A stretch of 32,000 nucleotides of DNA from an uncultured Clostridia bacterium (GTDB taxonomy: Bacteria; Bacillota; Clostridia; Lachnospirales; CAG-274), in NCBI GenBank assembly GCA_947624015.1, contig CANQIA010000003.1, positions 101,541-133,540 of the forward strand, in the 5' to 3' direction. The first letter of the stretch is position 1. Every line of letters starts with the position of its first letter. The notes beneath the pieces were generated by a model. It saw nothing but the letters and a program-made list of their open reading frames with translations. It ran no database searches and was not told where the DNA came from. Positions 9,800 through 29,883 of this stretch are shown piece by piece. Made by a program: the position numbers and the translations under genes.

Positions 9800-9819
9800 T
9801 ACATAAAGAAGGTAAAATT

Positions 9820-10764: not shown

Positions 10765-10783
10765 ATACAGGGAGAGAATGTAT

Positions 10784-12100: not shown

Positions 12101-13076
12101 ACCATTTTTGCTTAAACCTGCAGGAAAAGACTATATATGGGGCGGTAGCAGATTAAACGATGATTTTGGCAAGGGAATACCTATGGAACCACTTGCCGAA
12201 ACATGGGAGTGTTCTACTCATCCCGATGGACCAAGCATTGCAATAAGTGGCGAATACAAGGGAATAACCTTAACACAAATTATTAAAGAGAATCCCGAAT
12301 ATTTGGGAACACATCCATCAACAAAAAATGAAATGCCAATACTTATAAAGCTTATAGATGCAAAAAAAGATCTGTCTGTACAAGTGCATCCCGATGATAA
12401 CTATGCAAGGAAAAATGAAAACGGACAGCTTGGCAAAACGGAAATGTGGTATGTTCTCGATGCGACAAAAGACGCAAAACTTATATATGGTTTAAAACAC
12501 GATACAACAGCCGACAAGCTAAGAAAAAGTATCGAAAACAGAACTATTGAAAAACATCTTCAAAAAATTTCCATAAAAAAGGACGATGTTTTTTATATAG
12601 AAGCAGGAACTATCCATGCAATAGGCGCAGGCGCTCTTATAGCGGAAATACAGGAAAATTCCAATATAACCTACAGGTTGTATGACTATGACCGCACAGA
12701 CAAAAGCGGAAATAAAAGGCAACTGCATATAAATAAGGCTCTTGAAGCTGCCAATTTAAAAAGCAGTAAAGAGCCTGTACAGCCAATGAGAGTGCTGAAA
12801 TATCGGCAAGGCTGCGCATCTGAATTATTGTGCAGATGTAAATATTTTGAGGTATACAGAATGCTTTTGAATACAGAGAGATGCAGAAAATATGTAGGAT
12901 ATCAGGCAGACAGCACCTCTTTCAGAGTTTTATTATGCATAAACGGATGCGGAACAATGCTTTTGGACAATAATGAGGTAATAAGCTTTTTTAAAGGAGA
13001 CTGTATATTTGTGCCTGCAGAGTCTGTAAAGATAAGGTTGCATGGTAAGGCGGAATTTTTAGATGTAAGGGGATAA
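12069..13076 (+). CDS. manA: Mannose-6-phosphate isomerase, class I
   Basis: PMI-I metal/active-site motifs LSVQVHPDD, KTEMWYVL and GTIHAIGAG. SD AAGGAGA (12053-12059) is 9 nt before ATG 12069. The gene overlaps the manC 3' end. Confidence 0.9.
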   Translation: MTSKNTHLSNKPFLLKPAGKDYIWGGSRLNDDFGKGIPMEPLAETWECSTHPDGPSIAISGEYKGITLTQIIKENPEYLGTHPSTKNEMPILIKLIDAKKDLSVQVHPDDNYARKNENGQLGKTEMWYVLDATKDAKLIYGLKHDTTADKLRKSIENRTIEKHLQKISIKKDDVFYIEAGTIHAIGAGALIAEIQENSNITYRLYDYDRTDKSGNKRQLHINKALEAANLKSSKEPVQPMRVLKYRQGCASELLCRCKYFEVYRMLLNTERCRKYVGYQADSTSFRVLLCINGCGTMLLDNNEVISFFKGDCIFVPAESVKIRLHGKAEFLDVRG

Positions 13077-13082
13077 TTGTTT

Positions 13083-14255
13083 ATGAAAACTAAAGAATAT
13101 TTTTTACATTTGCTTTCATCATACATAAACAATAATCCACCTATGGAAGAAAACTCAATTGATTGGAATGAAATACTTTATCTTGCACAGATACATTCTG
13201 TACAGAGTATTATATATATAAGTATAAATAAACTAAAAAATAAACCTCCTATATATGATAAGCTAAAAGAATTGTTCTACATATCTGTAAATTTATCCAT
13301 AACACAGGATGTATTGATGAAAAATGTAATCGATGCCCTTACTGAAAATGGTATTGATCATATGCTTATGAAAGGCTACATATTGAAAAATTATTATCCT
13401 GATAAAGAAGCAAGAACTTTTGGAGATATTGATTTTCTTATAGATGAAAGGGATCGAGAGAAGTGCGATGCAGTTCTTAAAAATATAGGATTTGAATTTG
13501 TTGAGGAAGAATATGTCAAAGAAGTATGGGTATATAGAAAAAGACAAGTTACGCTTGAAGTTCACACAGAAATAATATACGAAAAGCTGTTTTTTGATAT
13601 TGACTACAGAAATTTTTTCCATGATAAAGTAAAAAATAAGCAGCTTATAGCAGATAATACCTATGAACTTAAAAAGGAAGATCATTTCATTTATTTGCTT
13701 GTTCATCTGGCGAAACATTTCTATAATGCAGGTGTGGGAATAAGAATGTTTATGGATATAGCTGTTATGCTAAACAAATTTGGCAAAGAGCTTGACTGTA
13801 AATATATTTATACTGAAATTGAAAAGCTTAGACTTACAAAGTTTGCAAATATAGTTTATTTTATATGCAAAAAATATTTTAATTCCAATATTGATTGCCG
13901 TGATATAACTAGAAATGAAGAAAATATAATTATGGCGTATATACTAGATCATGGAATTTTTGGATTTGAAAATAAAGATTACTTTGATATTCTATATCAT
14001 AAAAATGATGATAGCAAATTATCTACTATAAGAAAAAGACTTTTTCCGGATTATGAATACATGAAAGGGCACAATAAGTGGTTTTATAATGGTAAACGGA
14101 TAATGCTTCCATATGCATGGAGCAGACGTTTACTTGGACATCTACTCAAAAAGAATAAGAGGAAAGAAATAATAGATAAATTGAACGTCGCCATAAAGTG
14201 TGGTAATGATTTTCAAAAACATAATAACATACTGAATATGGTTGGGTTAAAATAA
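13083..14255 (+). CDS. Uncharacterised nucleotidyltransferase-fold protein (pol-beta type, NTP_transf_5-like), paralog 1
   Basis: KGYILKNYYPDKEARTFGDIDFLIDERD fits the hG..(x)..DxD pol-beta nucleotidyltransferase signature. Clearly homologous along its whole length to the gene at 21868-23064. Starts 7 nt after the manA stop (ATG 13083; TTG 13077 is also possible). Confidence 0.65.
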   Translation: MKTKEYFLHLLSSYINNNPPMEENSIDWNEILYLAQIHSVQSIIYISINKLKNKPPIYDKLKELFYISVNLSITQDVLMKNVIDALTENGIDHMLMKGYILKNYYPDKEARTFGDIDFLIDERDREKCDAVLKNIGFEFVEEEYVKEVWVYRKRQVTLEVHTEIIYEKLFFDIDYRNFFHDKVKNKQLIADNTYELKKEDHFIYLLVHLAKHFYNAGVGIRMFMDIAVMLNKFGKELDCKYIYTEIEKLRLTKFANIVYFICKKYFNSNIDCRDITRNEENIIMAYILDHGIFGFENKDYFDILYHKNDDSKLSTIRKRLFPDYEYMKGHNKWFYNGKRIMLPYAWSRRLLGHLLKKNKRKEIIDKLNVAIKCGNDFQKHNNILNMVGLK

Positions 14256-15448: not shown

Positions 15449-16492
15449 GTGAGTAATATAAAAAGGAATTCAGGTATAGAATTGCTTAGAATTATCTGCG
15501 TTATCTTGATTATTTGTCATCACTATTCTTTCCATGGGGGCTTCCTTCAATTTTCTTACGATGATATTGGCTTAAATATAATTTTTATTCAAATGTTAAA
15601 TATGTTTGGAAAGGCTTCTTGTTCTGTGTTTGCATTAATATCAGGATATTTTTTGATCAATGCAAAGAATGACATTAATTACTATAAGAAAATTGTTAAT
15701 TTAATATTTGAAATGTTCTTTTATTCGGTATTGATATTATTTATCGCTTTATTAACAAGAGCCGTTCCTATATCCGGAGTAGCTGTTGTTAAGGCTCTTT
15801 TTCCTATATTTTGGGGCAATTGGTATGTTATTTTTTATATAATTCTTTATTTAATTGTACCTTTTATAAATCCGGGACTCAAAGCTATGAATAAGAAAGA
15901 ATATACACTATTTTTAATGCTTTTATTATTTATATGGTGTATTGTTCCAACATTTACAGGTACAGCTTAGGAAATGTGTTCAATGGATTTCTTTATAGTT
16001 ATGTATCTTATTGGCGCATATATAAGATTATATATAAAAAGTATTTATAGTAATAGAAGAAAAATATTTTTGTGTTTGGTTTTGTCAACCCTTATAATGC
16101 TTTTAACCGTTCCCGTAATTGATTTTATTGGAAAAATATTAAAAGCAAACGTTATAATAAACCATGCAACATATTTTATGAAATATAATTCTATTATTTC
16201 TGTGGTGTGGGCAGTATCTGTATTTTTGTTCTTTTGTACTTTAAAATTCAAAAGCAATATAGTAAATTATATTGCAGGGTCAGTACTTGGAATATATCTT
16301 ATACATGACAATTTTATTTTAAGACAATATATATGGCAAGTAATTTACCCTAACAGTAATTATATAGAATTTCCATATATCCATGCTGCGACAAAAATAT
16401 TCTCGGTATTTGCTATATGTCTTATTATAGATATACTTAGAAGAATAACTATAGAAAAAGTATTCAATAGCTGTTTAAGAAATTTATTTTAA
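15449..16492 (+). pseudogene. Acyltransferase family 3 (polysaccharide O-acyltransferase) interrupted by a single in-frame TAG
   Basis: The two track ORFs (15449-15970 and 15974-16492) are in the same frame, separated only by TAG 15968-15970 plus one codon (...PTFTGTA*EMCSMDFFIVMYLIGAYIRLY). Together they give a ~345-aa, ~10-helix protein with the N-terminal acyltransferase-3 motif (IELLRIICVILIICHHY). GTG start with SD AAGGAGGG. The second half has no convincing SD of its own. Confidence 0.8.
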
Positions 16493-16746
16493 CTAAATTT
16501 CTTTAGTGTTGAAGTAAAGCATTCACATATCTTCTTACAAATAATTTAATTAAAAATTTGATTTAGTATATATAGGGATCAATATTATTACATATAAGAA
16601 AATAATTTTGTTCAAATTGGATATGTGTAAATTAAAACATATTCATGAGCAGTTATAAAGAAAAATTATTTTTACGGTTTTATGGATTGCAAACAAATGT
16701 AACCGATTTCCCGAATTTATTTGAAAATTTATATGGAGATTCGAGC

Positions 16747-17547
16747 ATGAAAAAAATAACATCTGAAGAAATGAAAGCCTTACAAGTCAATATACTTATT
16801 GATTTTGCAAAATTTTGTGATAAAAACAATCTGCATTATACATTAGGATACGGAACACTTTTAGGAGCTATAAGGCATAAAGGCTTCATACCGTGGGATG
16901 ATGATATTGATGTATTTATGCCACGACCTGACTACGAAAAGTTTATTAATATAATACGGGGAAATAAAATTTCTCCTTTTATAGATGTTATCTCATATAA
17001 ATTTGGCAATAGCACATACCCATTTATAAAACTTATAGATAATCGTACAGAAGTAGAAGAAAAATTTGTAAAGGATGTAAGAATTGGTGTATGGATTGAT
17101 ATATTTGCTATTGATGGAAATTTTAATAATAGTTTTCTTAGTATGCTCCATTACAAAACAGCAGCGCTCATAAGAAAAGTAGTTGAAATCAAAAGAAATA
17201 ATTTTGGCTCGGGAACAACAACGACAAAGAGAATTTTAAAAAGCTTTATATATCCTTTTACTATATTCTTTTCTTTTGATTTTTTATTAAAAACAATGGA
17301 TAGAGTATGTTGTTTAAGAAAATATGATAAAAGTAATTATATAGGATGCGTTGTTTGGGGATATGGCAGCAGAGGGCGAATTGAGAAGAAAGGTTTTTTT
17401 GAATGCATAGATGTGGAATTTGAAGGACATATTTTTAAAGTCACATCAAATTATGACAAATATTTAAAAAATATATACGGAAACTATATGCAGCTTCCAC
17501 CTGAGAATAAACGTATTAAACACAATTATGAAGCTTGGTGGAAATAA
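16747..17547 (+). CDS. licD: LicD-family phospho(no)-alcohol transferase
   Basis: LicD core LGYGTLLGAIRHKGFIPWDDDIDVFMPRPDYEKF with a typical N-terminal LQVNILIDFAKFCDKNNLHY. SD GGAGA precedes ATG 16747; the track's upstream extension from 16645 is not LicD-like. Confidence 0.85.
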   Translation: MKKITSEEMKALQVNILIDFAKFCDKNNLHYTLGYGTLLGAIRHKGFIPWDDDIDVFMPRPDYEKFINIIRGNKISPFIDVISYKFGNSTYPFIKLIDNRTEVEEKFVKDVRIGVWIDIFAIDGNFNNSFLSMLHYKTAALIRKVVEIKRNNFGSGTTTTKRILKSFIYPFTIFFSFDFLLKTMDRVCCLRKYDKSNYIGCVVWGYGSRGRIEKKGFFECIDVEFEGHIFKVTSNYDKYLKNIYGNYMQLPPENKRIKHNYEAWWK

Positions 17548-17571
17548 AATATAGCGTAAAGGAGTAAACCA

Positions 17572-19581
17572 ATGAAAGCATTAATATTAAACTCAGGCTT
17601 AGGTAGTCGCATGGGAGTCCTTACCTCAGAGCATCCCAAATGCATGACCGAGATTTCAAGCAGAGAAACGATTTTAAGCAGACAGCTTAAACAGCTTGCA
17701 GACGCAGGTATAAACGAAGTGATAATGACAACGGGACTTTTTGACGGTGTTCTTGTGGACTACTGCCACAGTCTTGACCTGCCTTTACATATCACATTCA
17801 TTAAAAATCCAAAATACAAGGCAACAAACTATATTTATTCCATTTACTGTGCAAAGGATCATCTTGACGATGACATTGTTCTTATGCACGGTGATATTGT
17901 ATTTGAGAATGAAGTTTTTGACAAGCTTATTGCCTGTGAAGAAAGCTGTATGGTTGTAAGCTCTACCCTTTCACTTCCCGAAAAGGATTTTAAAGCCGTT
18001 ATACAGAATGGTCTTATCAAAAAAATAGGTATTGAGTTCTTTAATGAGGCTATGGCTGCACAGCCCTTATATAAGCTGAATAAAGAGGATTGGAAGGTAT
18101 GGCTTGACAGTATTGTTTCCTACTGTGAAAGCGGTAAGACTGACTGCTATGCTGAAAATGCCTTTAACGATGTTTCAGGTAAATGCAAGTTATTCCCTCT
18201 TGATGTTAAAAATATGCTCTGTAATGAGATAGACAACCCGGAGGACTTGGCTGTCGTATCATCAAGGCTTAAAGAAATAGAAAACAGGACTGTGTATATG
18301 TGCTTTTCAACAGACATCATACACAGCGGTCACATTGATATAATCAAAAAGGCTGAAAGGCTTGGCAAGCTAATTATAGGCGTTTTATCCGATAAAGCTA
18401 TATCAAGCTACAAGAGATTTCCCCTTCTTCCCTTTGAGGAAAGAAAAACTATGTTCAAAAATATAGCAGGGGTTTACGATGTTGTGGAACAGAAAAATCT
18501 CAGCTATAAGGAAAATCTCGAAAAATATCAGCCCGATTATGTAGTGCATGGTGATGACTGGGTATCAGGTTTTCAGAAGCCTATAAGAGATGAGGTCGTA
18601 TCAATACTTGCTTCCTATGGCGGAATACTTGTAGAGTATCCCTATTCCAACGATGAAAAATACAAGGCTCTCGACGACAGAGCAAGAGCTGACTTATCTC
18701 TGCCCGATATAAGACGTGCAAGGCTTAAAAAAGCTCTTGATATGAAGGGGACTATTACGGCTATGGAGGCTCACAGTGGTATAACAGGACTTATAGTTGA
18801 AAAAACAAAGGTATACCAGAATGGCGAAACACACGAATTTGACGCTATGTGGATAAGCTCTCTCTGTGATTCTACGGCAAAGGGAAAACCCGATATCGAG
18901 CTTGTAGATATGACATCCCGTTTCCGTACCATTGACGACATCATGGAGGTCACTACAAAACCTATCATATTTGACGGAGATACAGGCGGACTTACGGAGC
19001 ACTTTGTATACACGGTAAAGAGCCTTGAGCGTATGGGCGTTTCAATGGTAATAATAGAGGACAAGACAGGTCTTAAAAAGAACTCCCTCTTTGGTACGGA
19101 AGTTGAACAGACTCAGGACAGTATAGAAAACTTCAGCGCTAAAATAGCCGCAGGCAAGAAAGCTCAGAAAACAAAGGACTTTATGATATGCGCCCGTATT
19201 GAGAGCCTTATACTTGAAAGAGGTATGGAGGACGCATTGGAAAGAGCCTTTGCATTTACCGTGGCGGGAGCAGACGCCATTATGATACACAGCAGGAAAA
19301 AGGACCCTGCTGAGATATTTGAATTTGTTGAAAAATTCAGAGAAAAGGACAAGACTACACCTATCGTTGTTGTCCCCACTTCCTTCAATACGGTTACGGA
19401 GGAGGAGTTCAAAGAACACGGTGTAAACATAATCATATATGCAAATCAGCTTACAAGGACAGGCTTCCCCGCTATGCAGAATGCAGCTAGGACTATACTT
19501 GAAAATCACAGGGCTAAGGAATGTGATGATATGTGTATGTCAATAAAGGACATAATAACGCTTATTCCCGAAGAAGGCTGA
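17572..19581 (+). CDS. Three-domain fusion: LicC/PntC-like nucleotidyltransferase + HxGH cytidylyltransferase-like domain + phosphoenolpyruvate phosphomutase
   Basis: aa 1-~240 MKALILNSGLGSRMG... (LicC-type NTP-transferase). aa ~245-375 CFSTDIIHSGHIDIIKKAERLG (HSGH at nt 18322-18333; TagD/ECT-type fold). aa ~380-669 belong to the isocitrate lyase/PEP mutase superfamily and carry the Ppm-diagnostic EDKx5NS motif (EDKTGLKKNS, nt 19057-19086). SD AAAGGAG. Confidence 0.9.
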   Translation: MKALILNSGLGSRMGVLTSEHPKCMTEISSRETILSRQLKQLADAGINEVIMTTGLFDGVLVDYCHSLDLPLHITFIKNPKYKATNYIYSIYCAKDHLDDDIVLMHGDIVFENEVFDKLIACEESCMVVSSTLSLPEKDFKAVIQNGLIKKIGIEFFNEAMAAQPLYKLNKEDWKVWLDSIVSYCESGKTDCYAENAFNDVSGKCKLFPLDVKNMLCNEIDNPEDLAVVSSRLKEIENRTVYMCFSTDIIHSGHIDIIKKAERLGKLIIGVLSDKAISSYKRFPLLPFEERKTMFKNIAGVYDVVEQKNLSYKENLEKYQPDYVVHGDDWVSGFQKPIRDEVVSILASYGGILVEYPYSNDEKYKALDDRARADLSLPDIRRARLKKALDMKGTITAMEAHSGITGLIVEKTKVYQNGETHEFDAMWISSLCDSTAKGKPDIELVDMTSRFRTIDDIMEVTTKPIIFDGDTGGLTEHFVYTVKSLERMGVSMVIIEDKTGLKKNSLFGTEVEQTQDSIENFSAKIAAGKKAQKTKDFMICARIESLILERGMEDALERAFAFTVAGADAIMIHSRKKDPAEIFEFVEKFREKDKTTPIVVVPTSFNTVTEEEFKEHGVNIIIYANQLTRTGFPAMQNAARTILENHRAKECDDMCMSIKDIITLIPEEG

Positions 19582-19593
19582 CAAGGAGAAAAT

Positions 19594-20706
19594 ATGAGTG
19601 AGCAGATCATTATAAGGACAGACGGAAACTATGATGAATTGAATACATATCTTGAAAACAAGGGTATTAAGAGGATATTTCTTGTATGTGACAGCTCAAT
19701 AGGCTTTCTCGGAATAAACAGCTTTTTTGAAAGCCTTAAAAATATCTATGTTACAAGATTCAGTGACTTTGAGCCAAATCCATTGTATGAGTCTATTGTT
19801 AAGGGTGTTGACGCATTTAACAAAGAAAAATGCAATTGTATCATAGCTGTAGGCGGCGGAAGCGCAATAGATGTTGCCAAGTGCATAAAGCTATATTCTC
19901 CTATGGATAAAAGCAAAAATTATCTGGAACAGAAAATAGTACCCAATGACATACCGTTTATAGCTGTTCCCACGACTGCCGGAACAGGCAGCGAAGCAAC
20001 AAGGTTTGCCGTTATATATTACAAGGGAGAAAAGCAGTCTGTAACGGATATAAGCTGTATTCCCGATGCAGTTCTTATGGATAGTTCCGTACTTGACACA
20101 CTGCCAATATATCAAAGAAAAGCCACAATGCTTGACGCTCTCTGTCATTCCGTAGAATCCTTTTGGTCTGTAAATTCAAATGACGAAAGCAAGGAATATT
20201 CCAAGAAAGCTCTTGAAATGATCATAGGAAATATGGACTCATATCTGACGAATGACAAAGACGGCAATACAGCCATGATGGAGGCGGCGCACCTTGCAGG
20301 CAAGGCTATAAATATAACCCAGACAACGGCAGCACATGCTATGTGCTATAAGCTTACAAGTCTTTATAAAATAGCCCATGGTCACGCTGCGGCATTGTGC
20401 TTGCCTGTACTGTGGGAATATATGCTAAGCAACATGGATAAATGTATTGACAGCAGAGGCAAGGTCTATCTTAAAGCTGTTTTTGACGATATTGCCAAGG
20501 TTTTGGGCTGTGATACACCGATAAAGGCTGTGGAAAAGCTTAAAGCAATAATAAACAGCTTGGAATTGCCGATACCAACAGCAGATGAAAAGGACTTTGA
20601 AATATTAAGAACGTCCGTAAATCCCATTAGGCTAAAAAATAATCCTATTGCATTGGATACCGATGCCATTGACGAAATATATCACAGAATACTTAATACG
20701 AAATAA
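19594..20706 (+). CDS. Group III iron-containing alcohol dehydrogenase, probable phosphonoacetaldehyde reductase (2-hydroxyethylphosphonate-forming)
   Basis: Fe-ADH signatures AVGGGSAIDVAKCIK, VPTTAGTGSE and the His cluster AAHAMCYKLTSLYKIAHGHA. Sits between the Ppm and Ppd genes, where PhpC/FomC/DhpG-type reductases occur. The family call is strong; the substrate call rests on context. Confidence 0.75.
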   Translation: MSEQIIIRTDGNYDELNTYLENKGIKRIFLVCDSSIGFLGINSFFESLKNIYVTRFSDFEPNPLYESIVKGVDAFNKEKCNCIIAVGGGSAIDVAKCIKLYSPMDKSKNYLEQKIVPNDIPFIAVPTTAGTGSEATRFAVIYYKGEKQSVTDISCIPDAVLMDSSVLDTLPIYQRKATMLDALCHSVESFWSVNSNDESKEYSKKALEMIIGNMDSYLTNDKDGNTAMMEAAHLAGKAINITQTTAAHAMCYKLTSLYKIAHGHAAALCLPVLWEYMLSNMDKCIDSRGKVYLKAVFDDIAKVLGCDTPIKAVEKLKAIINSLELPIPTADEKDFEILRTSVNPIRLKNNPIALDTDAIDEIYHRILNTK

Positions 20707-20721
20707 TCGGAGGAGTTGTAT

Positions 20722-21849
20722 ATGAAAGCAGAAAGTTTAGTCAGAATAATAGGTTCGGATTTTTATACGGGCGTACCGGATTCACAGATAAAGGCGCTTT
20801 GCAATTATCTTATGAATACATACGGCATAGATCCTAAGCATCACTTAATAGCGGCAAATGAAGGCAACTGTACCGCTCTTGCGGCAGGCTATCATCTTGC
20901 CACGGGGAAAGTGCCTGTTGTATACATGCAGAACAGCGGCGAGGGAAATATAATAAACCCGGTCGCATCGCTTCTCAATGACAAGGTTTATGCCATACCC
21001 TGTATATTTATAATAGGATGGAGAGGAGAGCCGGGTATTCACGATGAGCCTCAGCACATATATCAGGGCGAAGTGACCGTAAAGCTCCTTGAGGATATGG
21101 ATATAAAGCCTTTCATAATTGGCACGGATACCACCGATGAAGAAGTTGAAAAGGCTATGTCCGATTTCAGAGAGATATTAGCAAAGGGCAAAAGCGTTGC
21201 CTTTGTAATACGCAAGAACGCTCTGACCTACGACGGAAAAGTCAAGTACGAAAACGATAATAAAATGGTCAGAGAGGAAATAATACAGCATATAGTCAAA
21301 TATACAGGCGAAGACCCTGTTGTTTCAACTACGGGAAAGGCAAGCAGAGAGCTTTTTGAAACCAGAGTTGCAAACGGTCAAAGCCATAAATACGACTTCC
21401 TTACGGTAGGTTCTATGGGACACAGTTCATCCATAGCTTTAGGTATTGCCATAAACAAGCCCGATACAAAAATATGGTGTATTGACGGGGACGGGGCTGT
21501 GCTTATGCATATGGGTTCTATGGCGCTTATGGGCGCAAATGCTCCCCAAAATATGGTGCATATAGTTATAAATAACGGCGCTCATGAAACCGTAGGCGGT
21601 ATGCCGACTGTGGCTGAAAAGATAAACCTTGTTGAGATCGCAAGAGCTTGCGGTTATCCCAATGCTATATGCGTTGACAACTTTAACGACCTTGACAAAG
21701 AGCTTGAAAAAGCAAAGGTCAAAAACGAACTGAGCTTCATTGAGGTAAAGTGTTCCATAGGTGCAAGGGATGATCTTGGCAGACCTACTACTACTGCATT
21801 GGAGAATAAAGAATATTTTGTTGGTTATCTTAAAGAGCTCAGCAATTAG
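20722..21849 (+). CDS. ppd: Phosphonopyruvate decarboxylase (ThDP-dependent)
   Basis: Single-chain Ppd/AepY-like protein: FYTGVPDSQIK and ANEGNCTALAAGYHLATGK in the N-terminal half, and ThDP motif GDGAVLMHMGSMALMG...VINNGAHE. SD GGAGGAG favours ATG 20722 over TTG 20716. Confidence 0.9.
   Translation: MKAESLVRIIGSDFYTGVPDSQIKALCNYLMNTYGIDPKHHLIAANEGNCTALAAGYHLATGKVPVVYMQNSGEGNIINPVASLLNDKVYAIPCIFIIGWRGEPGIHDEPQHIYQGEVTVKLLEDMDIKPFIIGTDTTDEEVEKAMSDFREILAKGKSVAFVIRKNALTYDGKVKYENDNKMVREEIIQHIVKYTGEDPVVSTTGKASRELFETRVANGQSHKYDFLTVGSMGHSSSIALGIAINKPDTKIWCIDGDGAVLMHMGSMALMGANAPQNMVHIVINNGAHETVGGMPTVAEKINLVEIARACGYPNAICVDNFNDLDKELEKAKVKNELSFIEVKCSIGARDDLGRPTTTALENKEYFVGYLKELSN
21671..21813 (+). repeat. 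143-nt near-identical direct repeat, copy A (inside the intact ppd 3' end)
   Basis: Manual alignment to 23991-24133 (offset 2320) gives 141/143 identical. The differences are at 21727 (G vs A) and 21760 (G vs A). Confidence 0.9.
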
Positions 21850-21867
21850 AATTATTTTTCGGGGTTT

Positions 21868-23064
21868 ATGATGAATAATAAAATTTATTTTTTGAAGCTG
21901 CTTAAATCATATATATATAATAAAAAAATAGAATATGATGAAAATGTTGACTGGTTCGAAATTCTAAGACTTGCGAATATTCATTCTGTTCAGTGTATGA
22001 TATATCTAGCTATTGATAAATTGGATAAAAGACCTCCTATCTATGATGAGTTAAAAAAACTTTTTTTAAAAACTGTACAGATCTCAACTCTTCAGGAAAT
22101 AGGTATGAAGCAAACAATAGCAACGCTTAACGATAATTGCATTGAACATATACTTATAAAAGGATATGTACTTAGAAACTATTATCCTAATAAGGAAGTT
22201 AGGAGTTTTGGCGATATTGATATTCTGGTCGATGAAAGCGATATAAAAAAAGCCAATAATGCTCTTTTAAATATTGGTTTTGAATTCAATGAGGATAAAT
22301 CGGAAAATGCTGTGCAAACATATACAAAAGGTATCTTATGTTTGGAAATGCATACAGACCTAATATATGAACGACTGTTCAACGATTTTGATTATATCAA
22401 CTATTTTCGAGAGAAAATAAAAAATAAAGAGCATGTCAAAAATTATACTTATACATATGAACTCAAAAAAGAGGATCATTTTATATATATTCTTGTTCAT
22501 CTTGCCAAGCATTTTTATAACATCGGTGCAGGAATAAGAATGGTTCTGGATATAGTTGTATTTTTAAATAAATTTGGCAAAGTAATTGATTTTAAATATA
22601 TAGAAAACGAGCTTGACTCTATACAGCTCAAATATTTTTCTAATGTTATTTTTTATATTTGCAAAAAATACTTTGATACGGATATTGAATGTACACCGAT
22701 CGATGATAAGAAATTAGAACAGATAATTGATTATATTTTGGAACATGGTGTATTTGGCTTTGACAATATAGCGGTGCAGAGCGTTATGCTTAGGAACAAC
22801 GGAGATAAAGGTATCAAGTTATTTTTAAAAATGATGTTTCCTGATATGGCAGTTATGACAAGGATCTATCCATGGTTCAAAAACGGCAATAAATATATGC
22901 TTCCTTATGCATGGTTAAGGAGATGGTTATATCTGCTTACTAACAAAAATAAACGAAATGAAATTGGAACAAAGCTATCTGCTATTATGGATGATGATAT
23001 AGATGTAAATAAACATACTGAAATGATAAAATCTTTTGGACTAAAGCAAGATCGTCATACATAA
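21868..23064 (+). CDS. Uncharacterised nucleotidyltransferase-fold protein (pol-beta type, NTP_transf_5-like), paralog 2
   Basis: KGYVLRNYYPNKEVRSFGDIDILVDESD. Collinear with paralog 1 (shared blocks IHSVQ, KPPIYD/RPPIYD, YELKKEDHFIY.LVHLAKHFYN.G.GIRM, MLPYAW). Starts 18 nt after the ppd stop. Confidence 0.65.
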   Translation: MMNNKIYFLKLLKSYIYNKKIEYDENVDWFEILRLANIHSVQCMIYLAIDKLDKRPPIYDELKKLFLKTVQISTLQEIGMKQTIATLNDNCIEHILIKGYVLRNYYPNKEVRSFGDIDILVDESDIKKANNALLNIGFEFNEDKSENAVQTYTKGILCLEMHTDLIYERLFNDFDYINYFREKIKNKEHVKNYTYTYELKKEDHFIYILVHLAKHFYNIGAGIRMVLDIVVFLNKFGKVIDFKYIENELDSIQLKYFSNVIFYICKKYFDTDIECTPIDDKKLEQIIDYILEHGVFGFDNIAVQSVMLRNNGDKGIKLFLKMMFPDMAVMTRIYPWFKNGNKYMLPYAWLRRWLYLLTNKNKRNEIGTKLSAIMDDDIDVNKHTEMIKSFGLKQDRHT

Positions 23065-23261
23065 ACCGAAATTATATAAATATATATTGCAGGTTTCGAT
23101 GGATATAAAAATAGCAGAAATTTTGTTATACCACAGTTAGAAGTAAGGGTAACAAAACAAATAAGAAAATCTCAATTTATGATGACTCAGATCCCGGTAT
23201 CTATTAAAAAGATAATCAGATTTATTTTGTTATGCCTTCTTTTTTATGAGGAGAATAAATA

Positions 23262-23780
23262 ATGGATTTAAAAAAACTGAACTATTTAGTCATAGATGTT
23301 GATGGAACAATGACCGACGGTGGGATTTATTATGATGAGAACGGAAGCGAAATAAAAAAATTTAATACCAGGGATGCGGCAGGCTTTTTTGCTGCAAAAG
23401 CGGCAGGAATAAAAATAATTGTACTGACGGGCAGAGAGTGTGCGGCTACGACCCGAAGAATGAATGAGTTAAAGGTTGATTTTATTTTTCAGAACATAAA
23501 AAACAAAAAAGAATTCTTGTCAGTGTTTATGGAAGAAAAGAATATCGTCAGAAAAGAAATTGGTTATATAGGCGATGATCTCAATGACCTTGCGCCAATG
23601 AAGCTAACGGGATATATAGCTTGTCCATCCGACAGTTGTCGGGAAATAAAAGATATAGCTGATTATATAAGCTCCAATAAAGGCGGTCATGGCGCAGTAC
23701 GGGATATAATAGAACACATATTGCGCGAGCGTGGAATATGGAATAAAGTTGTATCAGAAATTTATATGAGCGGTATATAA
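23262..23780 (+). CDS. HAD-IIIA phosphatase of the KdsC/YrbI family (3-deoxy-ulosonate phosphate phosphatase-like)
   Basis: Motif I VIDVDGTMTDG, then NTRDAAG, the motif III/IV region IGDDLNDL, and the C-terminal GGHGAVRD typical of KdsC/KDN-9-P phosphatases. SD GAGGAG. Confidence 0.8.
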   Translation: MDLKKLNYLVIDVDGTMTDGGIYYDENGSEIKKFNTRDAAGFFAAKAAGIKIIVLTGRECAATTRRMNELKVDFIFQNIKNKKEFLSVFMEEKNIVRKEIGYIGDDLNDLAPMKLTGYIACPSDSCREIKDIADYISSNKGGHGAVRDIIEHILRERGIWNKVVSEIYMSGI

Positions 23781-23932
23781 GAATTAATAAAAAGGATAAA
23801 TTATGTTTTAGAAATATAAACAGAAATTAACAATTTAAGTCTTAATGTGATTAAAAATAAAGTTTTTTATATACTTGGAGAAGTGTAACTGACATTGATG
23901 TAGAAAAGGGGTTAATATCAACAAAATCGCCC

Positions 23933-24166
23933 AAAGTAGATTATAGCAATGTGATAATAGCAAAAGCCTGCGGTTGTCTAAATGTAGTGTGCGTTGACAA
24001 CTTTAACGACCTTGACAAAGAGCTTGAAAAAGCAAAGGTCAAAAACAAACTGAGCTTCATTGAGGTAAAGTGTTCCATAAGTGCAAGGGATGATCTTGGC
24101 AGACCTACTACTACTGCATTGGAGAATAAAGAAAACTTTATGGATTACATAGAAAAATTGAAATAA
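23933..24166 (+). pseudogene. 3' remnant of a second phosphonopyruvate decarboxylase gene
   Basis: Translation (...KVDYSNVIIAKACGCLNVVCVDNFNDLDKELEKAKVKNKLSFIEVKCSISARDDLGRPTTTALENKENF...) matches only the last ~75 residues of the intact Ppd (EKINLVEIARACGYPNAICVDNFNDLDKELEKAKVKNELSFIEVKCSIGARDDLGRPTTTALENKEYF). There is no N-terminal or ThDP-binding part and no SD. Confidence 0.8.
23991..24133 (+). repeat. 143-nt near-identical direct repeat, copy B (inside the ppd remnant)
   Basis: 141/143 identical to 21671-21813. The flanks diverge abruptly (24 of 34 nt identical immediately upstream; poor similarity downstream). Confidence 0.9.
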
Positions 24167-24304
24167 TAAAAATGTAATATAAGCATGGTATGTTCTTCAA
24201 GGGGTTGTACTTTGGGATTTTTAGAATATTTTTTGCAAACCACCGAGCTTGTGCTTAATATTGTTTACAAGGTAAAGTATAGATATTTTTTGATGAATTT
24301 AACT

Positions 24305-24336
24305 ACGGCATCCGATTTAGATATATCGAATGCCGT
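24305..24336. terminator. Strong hairpin between convergent units (possible bidirectional terminator or RNA stabiliser)
   Basis: acggcatccgat (24305-24316) pairs with atcgaatgccgt (24325-24336): 11 bp plus one C/A mismatch, 8-nt loop. It lies between the + strand ppd remnant and the stop of the - strand gene (24396). Neither side has a clear U-tract, hence the low confidence. Confidence 0.35.
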
Positions 24337-24395
24337 AAAGCTATATAATATTAATATTGAGTATTTATACAAATTTAATTATTTATAATTTCAAC

Positions 24396-25730
24396 TCAGC
24401 AATAATTAACTTGATCTTTCCAGCTCTGCCACAATATAAGAGAGGAAGCACTACTTGGTACCATATCAAACCATCTAAACTTATTTTCAAAGCTTATGCG
24501 GCTATTGTCGTTATATTTATAATTTAAAAATCTTCCGGAAATACCATCAGGTAATATGCATATAAAATTAGAATCAAAATCTGCTGTGTTTAAAAAATAA
24601 ATATAGTCTCCATCTCTTGTAAGATTAGGATTTTCATGCTTATATTCTACTAGAGTATTAAATTTCATATATACTTGTTCGGATGTAATATTTAATTTTA
24701 TATAAATAAGTAATTGTGGTTTACCTCCTTCTACTAAATTCCTGTAAATATATATTATTTTGCACTTATCAATATTATTATTGTCTATATTTAGTTCATC
24801 CTTGGCTTCTTTTTTTATTGCATTATAAATTCCATCCTTTATATCCTTAGCTTCCTTTATATATTTATATTTAAAAGATGCTTGAACACCTAGCCCTAAA
24901 TTATCTTTTTCTACGGAAAGATTTTTGGAGCGTTTTACAAATACTATTTTTTCATCAATTGTTTCTACTACTGCATTAAAGCCCAAATGATTTGATAATT
25001 TAGAATCGCTTAATGAACCTACTGAATTATCTAAAACAAATAGCTTTCTAAGATTAATGTTTCCATTAATTCTAAAATCCATAGCCCTGTTTGTAATAAG
25101 GGAATAAAAATATTGGGTTTCTCCCAAGTATACTTTTATAAAGTTTTTGTCTTTATCTATATGATTTACCCGATATAATTTGTTGTTATATTTTGTACTT
25201 TGTGAATGAGCTGAGAATAAAAAATTATGATTTTCAATTGAAAAGATAGGCGGCTTGTATTTTTTATCACTTTCAAATTCAAATAATAATATATTCTCGT
25301 CTATAATAATATATTCAGGTATAAGAGGACTTTTAATTTCTGCCCCATATGTACAATTTGAGACATTATTTGTGTGCTTTTTTGCTAATTTAAGATTTCT
25401 TTTGCTTACGCATTTCTGGGTATATTTCATTAAATTATCTTTGCTATAAATTTCACATAGTTTAGCATAATCTTCTGAAAGCTTATCGCTATCTTCTAAT
25501 ATTTTTTTAAAAAAATTAAAACAAAAGATATATACTATCAATGCAGCAAACAAAGTTGCCAAAATGTTAATAGTAAATGTGTACGCTATGCTATTTTTAT
25601 AGGCACGAAAAAAATACATTGCAGATGCTATAATTATGATAATTATAGTTACAAGAGCATATGTATATTGCCCCTTTTCACTAAATTTCCTAAGAAATCT
25701 ATATATTCTGTTTTTATTTTTTCTTCTCAT
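24396..25730 (-). CDS. Hypothetical membrane-anchored protein (N-terminal 2 TM helices + ~350-aa soluble region with a degenerate Nudix-like motif)
   Basis: SD AAGGAGG (25738-25744) lies 7 nt before ATG 25730 (MRRKNKNRIYRF...). Two hydrophobic helices (YALVTIIIIIIASAMYFF; FTINILATLFAALIVYIFCFNFF). The C-terminal region LGFNAVVETIDEKIVFVKRSKN...GLGVQASF...AIKKEAKDELNI resembles the Nudix fold entry and box (Gx5Ex7REUxEExGU) with substitutions at conserved positions. No family is confidently recognised. Confidence 0.8.
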   Translation of the reverse strand: MRRKNKNRIYRFLRKFSEKGQYTYALVTIIIIIIASAMYFFRAYKNSIAYTFTINILATLFAALIVYIFCFNFFKKILEDSDKLSEDYAKLCEIYSKDNLMKYTQKCVSKRNLKLAKKHTNNVSNCTYGAEIKSPLIPEYIIIDENILLFEFESDKKYKPPIFSIENHNFLFSAHSQSTKYNNKLYRVNHIDKDKNFIKVYLGETQYFYSLITNRAMDFRINGNINLRKLFVLDNSVGSLSDSKLSNHLGFNAVVETIDEKIVFVKRSKNLSVEKDNLGLGVQASFKYKYIKEAKDIKDGIYNAIKKEAKDELNIDNNNIDKCKIIYIYRNLVEGGKPQLLIYIKLNITSEQVYMKFNTLVEYKHENPNLTRDGDYIYFLNTADFDSNFICILPDGISGRFLNYKYNDNSRISFENKFRWFDMVPSSASSLILWQSWKDQVNYC

Positions 25731-25752
25731 GACATATCCTCCTTTAACTAAC

Positions 25753-25780
25753 ATTATAACACATTTTTTTATTAAATCAA
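25753..25780 (-). promoter_or_regulatory. Sigma-A-type promoter for the 2-TM gene
   Basis: On the - strand: -35 TTGATT (25780-25775), 16-nt spacer, extended -10 TGT-TATAAT (TATAAT = 25758-25753). This predicts a very short leader ending in the AAGGAGG SD. Confidence 0.5.
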
Positions 25781-26238
25781 TACATAATTTAAAAATACTT
25801 AAAGACTTATTTTAAACGCTGAAGGAATTTTTGGATTTGACATTTTTATTTTGAGAATATTAATTTATTGTTCCTTAAAATAATATGTTTGTCAGAGATT
25901 GATCCAATGAATAATTTGATAATTTTTTTATAAAAATATTCTCGGGATAATTATTGTATTCTTTTAGATCTTGAACAGTTTTTCGTGTAGCAATCTTTTT
26001 TTATATTATTATATTGAATTGATATGTTAAAAACTGTTTAATGTATTTGATTATGTATCTGGCATTTATGATATTGAAATACAATAATTGTTTATTGTTT
26101 TATCTTGTCCTAAAAATCTACGCCAGTGATTATATTACAGGAACTCCAAAGGATCTTTATATATTGCTCTATAAAAGCTAAGTACTATAAATAGTTCTGT
26201 TATTGTTTTCATAAAGATATACTGTATAAATTTACATT

Positions 26239-26275
26239 AAAAAAGCACCCTTGAATTTTTCAAAAGTGCTTTTTT
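26239..26275. terminator. Rho-independent terminator (bidirectional shape) ending the thi operon
   Basis: aaaagcac (26241-26248) pairs with gtgctttt (26266-26273), with an inner ttgaa/ttcaa stem. T6 follows the GC core when read on the - strand, and also on the + strand. It lies ~115 nt past the thiE stop. Confidence 0.55.
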
Positions 26276-26393
26276 AATGCCGCATTATTTTGCTCTTCTT
26301 GGAAACAAAATATAAATTTGTAAGTTCCATAAGCTTTTTTGTGTGCAGGGGCGCTGTTTCGCTGTAACTTTTTGCAGATATATTATATCGGAT

Positions 26394-26939
26394 CTATTCC
26401 TCTTTCATTTTCATGCTTTCGGACATCATACACACGCCAAAAGCCCCGACGTTTATGCAGCTTAAGGCGTTTTGGGGATCTATGCCGCCAAGGGCATACA
26501 CGGGTATATCTACAGCCTTGCATATTTTTTCAAGCTCTGCAAGTCCCTTTGGAGCAAGACCCTTTTTGCAGTCGGTTTCAAAAATATGGCTGAAGGTAAT
26601 ATAGCTTGCTCCGTAATTTTGGCAGGTCAAAGCCTCATTGATGCTGTGGGTGGATACGCCCTTTAATTCAAAATCCCTTATGAGGTCCCTATTTTCGATA
26701 AAAAGAGAGTAGGGCAAGTGTATTTTTTTGTATCCAAGCTCAAGCGCCGTGTTGATAAATGTATGGAGTATTATTTTATCGCTTATATCAATTGCTCTTT
26801 TGGCAAGAAAAGTATACTCCGCTTGAGGCAGATCCTTTTCCCTGAGTATTATATACCGATAATCGGATCTGTGGAGTATTTCGATCTGCTTAAGCAGATC
26901 ATCTGTTAAATTCCTGTTTGTTATAGCTATTTTAAACAT
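26394..26939 (-). CDS. thiE: Thiamine-phosphate synthase family protein (ThiE; a TenI-like alternative is not excluded)
   Basis: TIM-barrel ThiE/TenI pattern: GVSTHSINEA, GASYITFSHIFETDCK and IPVYALGGI. Short (181 aa). Its start overlaps the thiH stop by 8 nt (ATGTTTAA). Confidence 0.75.
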   Translation of the reverse strand: MFKIAITNRNLTDDLLKQIEILHRSDYRYIILREKDLPQAEYTFLAKRAIDISDKIILHTFINTALELGYKKIHLPYSLFIENRDLIRDFELKGVSTHSINEALTCQNYGASYITFSHIFETDCKKGLAPKGLAELEKICKAVDIPVYALGGIDPQNALSCINVGAFGVCMMSESMKMKEE

Positions 26940-28092
26940 ATATGTATTCGCTCATTACAGGCTGTAAGCCCTGTTCCTTAATAGCCTTATATACTTCTTC
27001 CACATTCCTGCCGTCGGAGATCTCAAACTGCTCGTCCCCCTTGCGCTTTCCGTCATCGCCATGACCGCCTATGCCTACATCCACGCCGGCTGATATTTTT
27101 GTAGCCGCAATTTTTATAATATTGTCCCTGAATCTCTGACATTCCCTTGTAGAGATAGTAATGCTTGCAAAAGGCATAAATATCCTGTATGCGCATATTA
27201 CCTGCAAAAGCTGAGGCTCATGTACGTCCTTGGGATTTATTTTATCGTTATTTATAATAGGTCTGAGCCTTGGGCAAGAAAAAGCAATATCGGCATGAGG
27301 ATATTTTTTCTGTATGAGATATGCGTGCATACCTGTTGCAAAGGCGTCTTTTCTGAAATCGTCAAGTCCCAGAAGAGCGGCAAAGCCAACACCGCGCATT
27401 CCGCCTCTTATAGCTCTTTCTTGGGCGTTAAGGCGATAGGGGAATATTCTCTTGTGTCCCTCCAGATGAAGAGTTTCATATTTATCGGAATTGTATGTTT
27501 CCTGAAATACCGTTACATAATCTGCGCCGCATTCGTGAAGATATCTGTATTCATCCGTGTTCATAGGATAAACTTCAAGTCCCACTACCTTGAAATATTT
27601 GCTAGCCAGCTTACATGCCATGCCTATGTATTTCACATCGGACATATTTCTGCTTTCGCCCGTAAGTATAAGTACTTCTTCAAGCCCCGTATCGGCAATG
27701 GCTTTCATTTCTTTTTCGATCTCTTCCTCATTGAGCTTTGCTCTGTTTATTTTGTTATGACAGTTGAAGCCGCAGTATATACAATAGTTTTCACAGTAGT
27801 TGGCTATGTAAAGGGGAGTAAACATATTTATGCTGTTGCCGAAATGCTTTCTGGTCTCAGCCATAGCCCTCTTAGCCATTTCTTCCAAGAAATTACCTGC
27901 GGCGGGAGAGAGCAGCGCTCCGAAATCATAGGGCGTAAGCACATCCGCTTTCAGAGCCTCCTCTACGTCAGATACTGTATATTTATCGGGATCGTAGTCA
28001 TTTCTTGCCTTTATGACCTTGTCCTGTATCTCCGAGCCTATGTTCTCCATATCCGGTAGATATGTCATGTGATCTATTCTTTTCTGTTCCAT
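26932..28092 (-). CDS. thiH: 2-iminoacetate synthase ThiH (radical SAM tyrosine lyase)
   Basis: Radical-SAM cluster motif CENYCIYCGF and ThiH-like length and C-terminal region. SD GAGGTG. Follows thiG in the operon. Confidence 0.93.
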   Translation of the reverse strand: MEQKRIDHMTYLPDMENIGSEIQDKVIKARNDYDPDKYTVSDVEEALKADVLTPYDFGALLSPAAGNFLEEMAKRAMAETRKHFGNSINMFTPLYIANYCENYCIYCGFNCHNKINRAKLNEEEIEKEMKAIADTGLEEVLILTGESRNMSDVKYIGMACKLASKYFKVVGLEVYPMNTDEYRYLHECGADYVTVFQETYNSDKYETLHLEGHKRIFPYRLNAQERAIRGGMRGVGFAALLGLDDFRKDAFATGMHAYLIQKKYPHADIAFSCPRLRPIINNDKINPKDVHEPQLLQVICAYRIFMPFASITISTRECQRFRDNIIKIAATKISAGVDVGIGGHGDDGKRKGDEQFEISDGRNVEEVYKAIKEQGLQPVMSEYIYV

Positions 28093-28102
28093 AGTACACC
28101 TC

Positions 28103-28864
28103 TTAATCCTGTAAAAATCCTGTTAAAGGAGATGATGCGCTTGCCTTTTCTATAACTCTGCCCATACCTGAAAGATATGCGGTACGTCCGGCTTCAATGG
28201 CTTTCTTGAATGCTTCCGCCATTGCAGGTATATCCCCGGCTGTGGCAATAGCCGTATTTGCCATAACAGCCGCCGCTCCCATTTCCATAGCCTCGCACGC
28301 CTGAGACGGCTTGCCTATGCCTGCGTCTACTATTATAGGCAGATCGATCTCTTCAATAAGTATTTTAATAAAGTCCTTTGTGCAAATGCCCTTGTTGGAG
28401 CCAATAGGCGCTCCGAGAGGCATTATGGATGCCGCTCCCGCATTTACAAGATCTCTGGCGGCATTTAAGTCGGGATACATATAGGGCATTACAATAAAGC
28501 CCTCTTTGGCAAGTATTTCGGTAGCCTTTATTGTTTCATAGTTGTCGGGCAGCAGATATTTGGAATCGTGTATTACCTCTATCTTTACAAAATCGCCGCA
28601 GCCAACCTCTCTTGAAAGCCTGGCTATCCTTACTGCTTCTTCGGCATTTCTTGCGCCCGATGTATTTGGCAGCAGAGTAATGCCCTTTGGTATGTAGTCC
28701 AGTATATTGTCGGCGTTTGAATTTGCACGTCTTAATGCAAGAGTTATTATTTCGGCTCCGGCATTTTCAACGGCTGCCTTAATAAGCTCAAGAGAGTATT
28801 TGCCTGAGCCGAGTATGAATCTTGAATTGAATTCGTGTCCTGCTATTATTAATTTGTCCTTCAT
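28103..28864 (-). CDS. thiG: Thiazole synthase ThiG
   Basis: [45 protein letters not shown]...[17 protein letters not shown] and VDAGIG. SD AAGGAGA. Confidence 0.95.
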
Positions 28865-28887
28865 TGTTATTCTCCTTTTATTATATA

Positions 28888-29514
28888 TTAATTTAGATCA
28901 CACAACAGCAACCGCAATACCGTATTAGCCTGATGCATGGCACATATGCCTACTCTGGGAGCCATAAGTCCCATGCCGTTTTCTATGCCGGATACCATAT
29001 CGCCGCAAATATAAAGGCGATCGTTTATTTTACGGCTCTGTATCGTATTGCCTGTGTCAAAGCCTGCCATGCCGGATGCGGATACTACCGTAAAGTCCTC
29101 GGGGGATGTAAGCAAGGTGTTTATGAGCATTGCCTTGCTTTCAGCCTTGTCAAAGCATTCGCATACGATGCTGTGATCCTTAAAGAGTTCAACGGCGTTG
29201 CTTTCGGTTATCTTTATTTTTTTGCGCTTAATCTTTATTATGGGATTGACTGCCCTTATTTTATTTGCAAGCGCCACAGTTTTTGCCTTTCCTATGTCGG
29301 AGATATCATACTGCTGTCTGTTAAGGTTTGTAATGTCTACCCTGTCAAAATCCACAATAAAAAGCTCTCCGATTCCCGCTCTTGCCAGAGCTAAGGCAAC
29401 ATTGGAACCAAGACCGCCCAAGCCCGCTACGGCAACCTTTGAATTTATTAGCTTGTGGTATATATCGCTGCCGTGCCGCATTATAAGGGCATTTATAAAT
29501 TCGTTATTTGTCAT
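28888..29514 (-). CDS. thiF: ThiS adenylyltransferase ThiF (E1-like)
   Basis: Nucleotide-binding [44 protein letters not shown] 29514 (or GTG 29523) overlaps the thiS stop, which suggests translational coupling. Confidence 0.9.
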
Positions 29515-29515
29515 A

Positions 29516-29713
29516 TCAACCACCGCCTACAAAGTTGACTATCTCTATAATATCCTCATCGTTTATTATATAGCTGTCGTACTCCTTCTTTGAGAGTATA
29601 CTGCCGTTTACTTCAACGGCAATGCGGGTCTTATTGTAGCCGTTTTCGTCAAGATATTGCCCCAGGGTATTGCCTTTTGCTTCGGGAGCTGCCTTTCCGT
29701 TTATTTTTATCAT
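29516..29713 (-). CDS. thiS: Sulfur-carrier protein ThiS
   Basis: 65-aa ubiquitin-like protein ending in ...NFVGGG (C-terminal Gly-Gly). INGK start and VEVNG core. SD GGAGA at 29719-29723. Confidence 0.9.
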   Translation of the reverse strand: MIKINGKAAPEAKGNTLGQYLDENGYNKTRIAVEVNGSILSKKEYDSYIINDEDIIEIVNFVGGG

Positions 29714-29721
29714 ATTTTTCT

Positions 29722-29848
29722 CCTTTCAAAATAAAAAATCACACAAAGGATCGCACCATAAATTCGGCTCCTTACGGAAGCCTACGCCCTTTCAAGGTGG
29801 TGTACCCCTTTGTGTGATCTTTATTTACATGATCATCACTTTTTATTT
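29722..29848 (-). promoter_or_regulatory. thiS leader with terminator-embedded structured element; candidate thiS-motif (HMP-PP) riboswitch, not a THI-box
   Basis: On the - strand, a 12-bp basal stem (29818-29807 pairs with 29749-29738; GAUCACACAAAGG.../...CCUUUGUGUGAU) encloses ~57 nt. The enclosed part contains a GGCUUCCGUAAGGAGCC hairpin (29782-29766) and CACCA/UGGUG pairing. UUUUUUAUUUU follows directly, then the SD and the thiS AUG. The THI-box hallmark CUGAGA is absent. Confidence 0.5.
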
Positions 29849-29854
29849 TAAGTT

Positions 29855-29883
29855 ATTTTAACATAATATTTTATGACTGTCAA
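29855..29883 (-). promoter_or_regulatory. Sigma-A-type promoter of the thi operon
   Basis: On the - strand: consensus -35 TTGACA (29883-29878, overlapping the feoB stop codon), 17-nt spacer, extended -10 TGT-TAAAAT (TAAAAT = 29860-29855). Confidence 0.6.

Follow-up and report, generated by a model that had tools for sequence, protein, structure and literature searches.

The question raised by this locus is how the 3' end of a second ppd (phosphonopyruvate decarboxylase) gene came to lie downstream of an intact copy of the same gene, and how a short block within that fragment came to be nearly identical to the intact gene between flanks that are clearly more diverged. The window, i.e., the whole 32-kb stretch of DNA that was analysed, carries on its plus strand, from 107 to about 23780, a polysaccharide-biosynthesis locus with glycosyltransferases, a flippase-like protein, GDP-mannose enzymes, two NTP_transf_5 paralogues, an acyltransferase and a phosphonate-tailoring cassette. 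At the right-hand end of this locus, the order is ppd, NTP_transf_5 paralogue 2, a KdsC-family phosphatase, a spacer, the ppd relic, a hairpin and a convergent open reading frame (ORF) of 444 residues (Table 1), beyond which the minus strand carries thiamine-synthesis genes and feoB. The closest relatives are uncultured rabbit-gut Clostridia MAGs, labelled 'Lapin', and the variable gene content lies between conserved flanks across these relatives.

Table 1. Features at the right-hand end of the polysaccharide locus, in window coordinates.
Feature	Position	Strand	Evidence
LicD	16645-17547	+	Pfam
PEP mutase triple fusion (NTP_transf_3 + CTP_transf_like + PEP mutase)	17572-19581	+	Pfam; TIGR02320, 402.6 bits (cut-off 319.55)
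Fe-alcohol dehydrogenase	19594-20706	+	Pfam
Live ppd, 375 residues (P0001)	20722-21849	+	ATG seven bases after GGAGGA; TIGR03297, 458.5 bits (cut-off 312.5)
Repeat copy 1, putative donor block (B) inside the live ppd, codons 317-364	21670-21813	+	142/144 to 23990-24133; 20 sites private to the live lineage versus four sister alleles
Atypical tail of the live ppd, EYFVGYLKELSN*	21814-21849	+	Identity to sister alleles about 50% (15-17 of 30-36 aligned bases)
NTP_transf_5 paralogue 2, between the repeats	21868-23064	+	PF14907, E = 2.4e-43; first 100 nt in L095
KdsC-family HAD phosphatase, between the repeats	23262-23780	+	TIGR01670, 137.6 bits (cut-off 106.95)
Spacer, 176 nt, without ppd homology; left non-homologous relic junction at about 23950-23957	23781-23956		Alignments no better than shuffled; Logan contig L093 covers 22491-24019 at 100%
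ppd 3' relic, residues 306-375, stop at 24164-24166, with about 11 nt of old downstream sequence	23957-24177	+	tblastn, residues 306-373; blastn to L004, 23956-24177 at 86%; TIGR03297, positions 296-360 of 360 only
Repeat copy 2, putative converted patch inside the relic	23990-24133	+	Live-like at 20/20 informative sites; later G-to-A at 24047 and 24080
Hairpin between the relic and the convergent gene, candidate terminator	24304-24337		Folding energy -16.4 kcal/mol, z-score -3.2; consensus terminator scan empty
Convergent 444-residue ORF, right flank of the polysaccharide locus (P0005)	24396-25730	-	88% nucleotide identity to L002; no Pfam/NCBIfam family

The base composition of the locus is uneven, with a G+C content of about 40% in 9000-13000 (the GDP-mannose block) and 17500-22000 (the phosphonate cassette), near that of the flanking housekeeping genes, and of 25-32% in the glycosyltransferase, flippase, NTP_transf_5 and phosphatase genes, a mosaic typical of exchanged glycan-locus modules. 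The Acyl_transf_3 gene (15449-16492, plus strand) is interrupted by one in-frame TAG at 15968-15970, which leaves two ORFs in the same frame, and is probably a nonsense pseudogene; a two-piece acyltransferase is also found in the sister locus L010. Another related locus (L007) contains two short fragments of a GLF gene, of 48 and 53 residues (3090-3390 and 10438-10827), together with a transposase fragment, and gene remnants are therefore common in such loci. The translation of the convergent 444-residue ORF has a hydrophobic N-terminal stretch, and this ORF is absent in the sister locus L003. The window has no DUF5688 gene, which relatives carry at the flank of the locus. For the thiS-thiF-thiG-thiH-thiE operon (26394-29880, minus strand), a search for an upstream TPP riboswitch was negative both at Rfam gathering scores and, within the gap of 166 nt that follows feoB, at E values of up to 1.

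The intact gene, referred to here as the live ppd, aligns with positions 2-359 of the 360 of TIGR03297 and contains both PF02776 and PF02775, as a full-length member of the family. Its cassette is shared with the sister loci L003 and L004, to which 19500-21819, i.e., the Fe-alcohol dehydrogenase and ppd, is uniformly about 92% identical at the nucleotide level, and in which LicD and the PEP mutase (PepM) stand in the same order, a comparison that concerns gene order and not nucleotide identity. The triple-fusion architecture, with PF12804 and PF01467 on PepM, makes up 2.8% of Ppm proteins according to Rice et al. (PMC6697681). As in the Pnt clusters that combine a nucleotidyltransferase-fused PEP mutase with LicD (PMC6697681), the live ppd sits in a cassette with LicD beside PepM, whereas a Fe-alcohol dehydrogenase stands here at the usual place of the AEP transaminase; the likeness concerns the context of ppd, and not the relic or the conversion patch. 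Given that the Fe-alcohol dehydrogenase follows the PEP mutase and that no aminotransferase was found in the window, the gene content suggests a decoration with 2-hydroxyethylphosphonate rather than AEP.

The 3' end of the live ppd is unusual. Compared with four sister alleles from rabbit-gut Clostridia (L003, L004, L010 and L011), the live gene is 90-93% identical over most of its length and 72-86% identical in the last 200 nt, and the sister alleles diverge from it completely after 21819. In a comparison with 120 homologues, few or none share Y365 or V367 of the tail. The odd tail might have arisen by fusion to the start of an NTP_transf_5 gene, with which it shares a 13-nt string (TAAAGAATATTTT) and a KEYF motif; this origin was rejected and the likeness judged to be chance, because the ppd consensus (YLKEL) accounts for the tail just as well. 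The string is common to 13091-13103, at the start of NTP_transf_5 paralogue 1, and to 21807-21819, at the junction of the repeat block and the live tail, and the NTP_transf_5 N-termini (M..KEYFL.LL.SYI) resemble the ppd tails (ENK.NFM.YLK.L) more generally. This likeness is probably due to chance in AT-rich DNA, and the shared string could supply microhomology for recombination.

The initial annotation of this DNA described a decayed second ppd copy at 23933-24166. The 3' remnant is real, but it starts at about 23957 and has about 70 codons, rather than the approximately 75 proposed. The homology to ppd begins at 23957, which corresponds to residue 306, in tblastn searches and at about 23950 in blastn searches, and local DNA and protein alignments upstream of 23957 did not exceed the scores of shuffled sequences, for which reason a longer and more decayed relic reaching further upstream was rejected. 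Against TIGR03297, the relic scores 56 bits and matches positions 296-360 of 360 only, short of both full length and the cut-off of 312.5, and it is substituted at five residues that 115-120 of the 120 homologues share (Y312C, P313L, A315V, E336K and G347S). As only the end of the profile is matched and these near-invariant residues are lost, 23957-24166 is a pseudogene fragment, the dead 3' end of a ppd, and the decay that the initial annotation had proposed is supported.

An intact ORF of 71 residues runs over the relic from a GTG start (23951-24166), with no obvious ribosome-binding site, and annotators should treat it as a relic and not as a gene. The relic was also considered as a regulatory RNA, a promoter or a terminator, all of which were rejected, given that no Rfam match was found in or near it, that promoter-like sites were fewer there than in shuffled sequences, and that a scan for consensus terminators found nothing.

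The relic contains one copy of the strongest and by far the longest repeat of the window (family D1). The identity of 141/143 nt first noticed between 21671-21813 and 23991-24133, at an offset of 2320, was borne out by a comparison of the window with itself, which confirmed the edges of the block and showed that the exact match begins one base sooner, giving 142/144 nt (21670-21813 and 23990-24133). Both mismatches are G to A in the relic copy and have the effects already described, GAA becoming AAA at 21727/24047 (E336K) and GGT becoming AGT at 21760/24080 (G347S); between and beside them lie three stretches of exact identity, of 57, 32 and 53 nt, and both changes are among the five substitutions of the relic at near-invariant sites.

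The sharp drop in identity on both sides of the block likewise held, with 23/33 identical positions between the live gene and the relic upstream and 16/33 downstream. Rather than a uniform identity profile along the fragment, differences amount to 2/144 in the block and rise to 10/33 and 17/33 on its two sides (Fisher's test, p = 8e-14), i.e., a near-identical block between homologous but clearly more diverged flanks, as expected of an ectopic gene-conversion tract. A chance or low-complexity repeat is ruled out by the 142/144 identity and by the first rank of this repeat in the window.

As the source of the window is a metaSPAdes metagenome contig with about 10x coverage, and the longest exact run of the block (57 nt) is near the usual maximum k of metaSPAdes (55), the repeat or the relic might be a chimeric join of two strains made during assembly. 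This is extremely unlikely, given the Logan assemblies, which were made independently from the raw runs with k = 31. One contig (L093, the same in four samples) reproduces 22491-24019 at 100% and ends 30 nt (k-1) into the repeat; its final 30-mer occurs at two places, 21670 and 23990, and its final 31-mer is unique. A second contig of 10.2 kb (L097, the same in two samples) is 100% identical to 24104-28730, beginning 30 nt within the opposite end of the repeat. The boundary 31-mers physically link relic-specific bases to live-type bases of the block. Because the contigs stop exactly 30 nt inside each repeat end, the repeat is not a chimera; it is real in the DNA, and the reads contain both of its edges.

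The interior 84 nt of the relic block (24020-24103), with both mismatches, are carried by the metaSPAdes contigs only, and the live-copy bases at both mismatch sites are confirmed by a Logan contig from another study (L095, SRR11585414). In addition, a simple chimera through the block cannot yield a ppd fragment that is preceded by a spacer unrelated to ppd. An assembly chimera, which the initial annotation had named as a concern, is thus strongly argued against by the contig ends at both edges.

The origin of the block can be read from the sites at which the live gene differs from the majority of the four sister alleles, where the state of the relic was scored. The relic is sister-like at 6/6 of these informative sites in its left flank, live-like at 20/20 in the block and sister-like at 12/13 in its tail (Fisher p = 3e-10), so that live-like states outside the block amount to 0/6 and 1/13, respectively, and the phylogenetic signals of the parts conflict. 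The relic tail is identical to L004 at 31/33 positions and to L011 at 30/33, and the homology to L004 runs 11 nt past the stop. The relic thus reads as a sister-type ppd end, the middle of which was apparently overwritten by live-type sequence, and the partition of the sites supports the gene-conversion-like patch from the live gene that had been proposed.

Given that the 20 private sites of the block match the diverged 3' region of the live gene, and that the flanks of the relic are sister-like, the copying appears to have run from the live gene to the relic; conversion in the opposite direction was rejected for the same reasons. The relic-private changes (4/33 in the left flank versus 2/144 in the block, p = 0.012) indicate that the block is probably younger than the rest of the relic, whereas the tail has only 33 nt and is too short for its lack of decay, relative to the left flank, to inform statistically. 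The initial annotation had also derived the relic from a diverged ppd allele and placed a different phosphonate cassette here in the past. The relic is of another allele type than the live gene, but its flanks are of the ordinary sister type, and it is the last 11 codons of the live gene that are unusual; similarly, an older ppd certainly ended the locus, but the rest of the older cassette is not recoverable.

The live allele is also found in a different genetic background. The L095 contig matches 20719-21968 with one mismatch in 1250 nt, a segment that spans the whole of ppd, the odd tail and the first 100 nt of NTP_transf_5, at which point the contig ends. Directly upstream of ppd, this contig (L095:1-2195) carries a pepM-like gene that is 76% identical to that of the window, with no alcohol dehydrogenase between them. 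Because this segment is near-identical behind a different upstream gene, the live ppd, the odd tail and the start of NTP_transf_5 move as a block, and L095 points to a recent horizontal exchange with a breakpoint at the ribosome-binding site of ppd, at about 20711-20719. The contig passes unbroken through the repeat block, which is identical to that of the live gene, while the contigs from the window's own runs break there, which suggests that the L095 strain has no identical second copy of the block. This strain may have obtained its block from a window-like strain after the events described here, and so does not date them independently.

Among ppd alleles that are more than 94% identical at the protein level, roughly the final 10 codons vary freely, and so does the next gene, which is NTP_transf_5 in L003, a GT2 gene in L010 and a reverse-strand UbiA gene in L011; a hairpin follows ppd in L004 and L011. 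As both the tails and the following gene vary among such similar alleles, the 3' end of ppd is a module boundary.

Taken together, these observations are probably best explained by a recombination scar that formed in two steps and has no function of its own. In the first step, an older ppd of the sister type would have been the last gene of the locus, just before the convergent 444-residue gene, and recombination would have placed the live ppd with its odd tail, NTP_transf_5 and the KdsC-like phosphatase upstream of it. The right-hand junction, non-homologous and at about 23950-23957, would lie inside the old ppd, leaving only its final 70 codons and about 11 nt beyond the gene. Such a step would resemble homology-facilitated illegitimate recombination, or "C-terminal displacement", in that the displaced 3' piece of the old gene directly follows the newly placed module and shares its orientation, and the homology to ppd stops at the far-end junction. 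A homologous anchor exists in the upstream cassette, but the left crossover is not placeable, because the identity to the sister loci is uniform over 19500-21819. The only donor-like sequence is L095, and in a search for a donor of NTP_transf_5 paralogue 2 and the phosphatase, the nearest NTP_transf_5 was only 61% identical and in an unrelated context.

In the second step, the relic would decay, and the 144 nt at 21670-21813 of the live gene would later be copied into it without reciprocal exchange, the right stop of the tract falling where the homology of the two tails ends. After this, the relic would have gained the two G-to-A changes at invariant residues. The order and the molecular mechanism of the first step are those that we infer, as is the placing of the second step within one chromosome.

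The direct repeats could delete about 2.3 kb, as had been suggested; recombination between them is predicted to remove 2320 nt and to leave an intact ppd of 374 residues with a sister-type tail, but no deleted allele was found. A search of protein clusters, related loci and two JGI metagenome scans, which included the comparison of this junction with relatives proposed earlier, confirmed the mosaic through the four sister alleles and found neither the ancestral state, in which the 444-residue gene would adjoin an intact ppd of the sister type, nor an unconverted relic, nor the 2.3-kb deletion; the exact-protein clusters were singletons.

The topology is exactly that of a Campbell integrant, and both repeat copies may instead have arisen at once, if a circle with a ppd 3' fragment, NTP_transf_5, the phosphatase and the spacer had entered the resident ppd through a single crossover in the block, the insert contributing the left flank, the block and the odd tail, and the resident gene the sister-type tail, with no later conversion. 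The predicted excision of 2320 nt would then simply restore the resident gene, and the right edge of the repeat does coincide with the point at which the live gene loses its likeness to the sisters (21813/21819). This single-step history is nevertheless unlikely, as it needs about 99% identity between donor and resident in the block and only 65-70% and 48% in the adjoining 33 nt, and requires one allele to combine a left flank of the diverged type with a tail of the sister type, and the second allele to have the opposite combination, when the simpler partition sets live flank, block and odd tail against relic flank and relic tail. It also requires an equal pseudogene age throughout, and the left flank of the relic is more decayed than the block, so that neither the ages of the copies and flank nor the pairing of resident and insert are those of a single integration.

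The two-step history could also have run with a patch from outside the cell, i.e., with DNA from a kin cell that carried the live allele and recombined ectopically with the relic. The circulation of the live allele between backgrounds, as seen in L095, would allow this, and mosaic outcomes with short discontinuous donor segments are reported for Bacillus subtilis transformation (PMC13344027). Nothing in the sequence tells the two routes apart, but a donor copy 2.3 kb away on the same chromosome is the most available template, and an outside source has rather little probability. It is very doubtful that selection has kept the relic or the repeat pair, whether as a 71-residue protein, as a regulatory element or as a standing substrate for recombination, by which the ppd tail would be switched and NTP_transf_5 and the phosphatase lost. 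The intact ORF, the working ppd predicted after a deletion and the recurrence of ppd 3' relics at locus ends elsewhere, one type of which keeps all the invariant residues, would fit such a role. On the other hand, five near-invariant residues are substituted, including both of the changes that followed the conversion, the ORF lacks an obvious ribosome-binding site and any Rfam match, and the block, which in a comparison of strains ranks with the more variable stretches of ppd, is not a conserved DNA element. Furthermore, a second ppd fragment within 10 kb was found in none of 90 ppd-bearing or related loci (80 GTDB species representatives), the window alone having one.

The favoured history, of a displacement followed by a conversion, combines events of known kinds. 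Ectopic gene conversion in bacteria is familiar from duplicates such as tufA/tufB, the rRNA operons and the silent pilS copies with pilE, which share with this locus a short non-reciprocal tract between non-allelic copies, sharp edges and a conflicting phylogenetic signal; here, however, the flow is from an expressed gene into a dead fragment, with no phenotypic effect and no dedicated machinery. In pilS and vls, silent copies donate to expressed ones in a programmed manner, whereas the window has a single relic, a flow from live gene to relic and no further copies. The exchange of capsule and O-antigen cassettes also leaves gene remnants at junctions, e.g., in pneumococcal cps loci, and as in those loci, low-GC serotype-specific genes lie here beside higher-GC sugar and phosphonate modules, and other genes are broken. 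In contrast to the pneumococcal loci, there are no IS elements at the junction in the window, and the host is an uncultured rabbit-gut Clostridia lineage.

The orphan 3' fragments of rhs, CDI and T6SS effector loci have been explained by homology-facilitated illegitimate recombination (PMC5361080). In that process, as in the first step proposed here, a module enters by upstream homology and joins non-homologously, the old 3' end is pushed downstream, and the repeats common to the main gene and the orphan can recombine later (PMC5361080). Unlike those systems, the gene concerned is a metabolic enzyme in a glycan locus and not a polymorphic toxin, and there is one visibly decaying relic, with no array and no selected immunity gene. 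This is a known kind of event in a new example, and no new function or system is implied.

A search with the relic peptide returned many short C-terminal fragments of ppd, many of them at contig ends and hence uninformative, and two genuine relics. The first, of the Mediterraneibacter faecis type (L098-L101:10001-10246), is a fragment of 81 residues named by NCBI that covers residues 294-373 (80 codons), is represented in 551 index blocks and keeps every invariant residue. The second, from SRR11585416/7 (L102:10061-10243), belongs to a rabbit- or other-gut organism and is an ORF of 80 residues with ppd homology over residues 317-375 (59 codons). A further locus with an apparently wholly fragmented cassette (L104) was set aside, as its contig name suggests a long-read assembly, in which frameshift errors could mimic decay.

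Both relics are the last plus-strand element of a polysaccharide locus, directly before the convergent flank gene, and no phosphonate cassette was found within 10 kb of either. As this topology matches that of the window, the 3' end of ppd seems to have been left behind repeatedly; the window stands out in that a relic and a live ppd coexist, with a conversion patch. Given that ppd 3' relics of 59-80 codons end loci in at least three lineages, and that the tails and the following gene vary, a bolder but rather improbable reading is that the 3' end of ppd is a recurrent, perhaps favoured, junction or anchor for the exchange of polysaccharide modules in gut Clostridia, with the relics as its footprints and the repeat pair as a standing substrate for a one-way switch. 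If this were true, the switch would remove NTP_transf_5 and the phosphatase and restore a sister-type ppd.

Finally, this locus offers a clean example of module replacement at the edge of a surface-glycan locus, combined with short-tract ectopic conversion into a pseudogene, in which the proposed events are dated relative to each other and the last gene of the phosphonate cassette is shown to be a module boundary. The 3' relics of ppd across gut lineages could help to reconstruct the gain and loss of phosphonate decoration.
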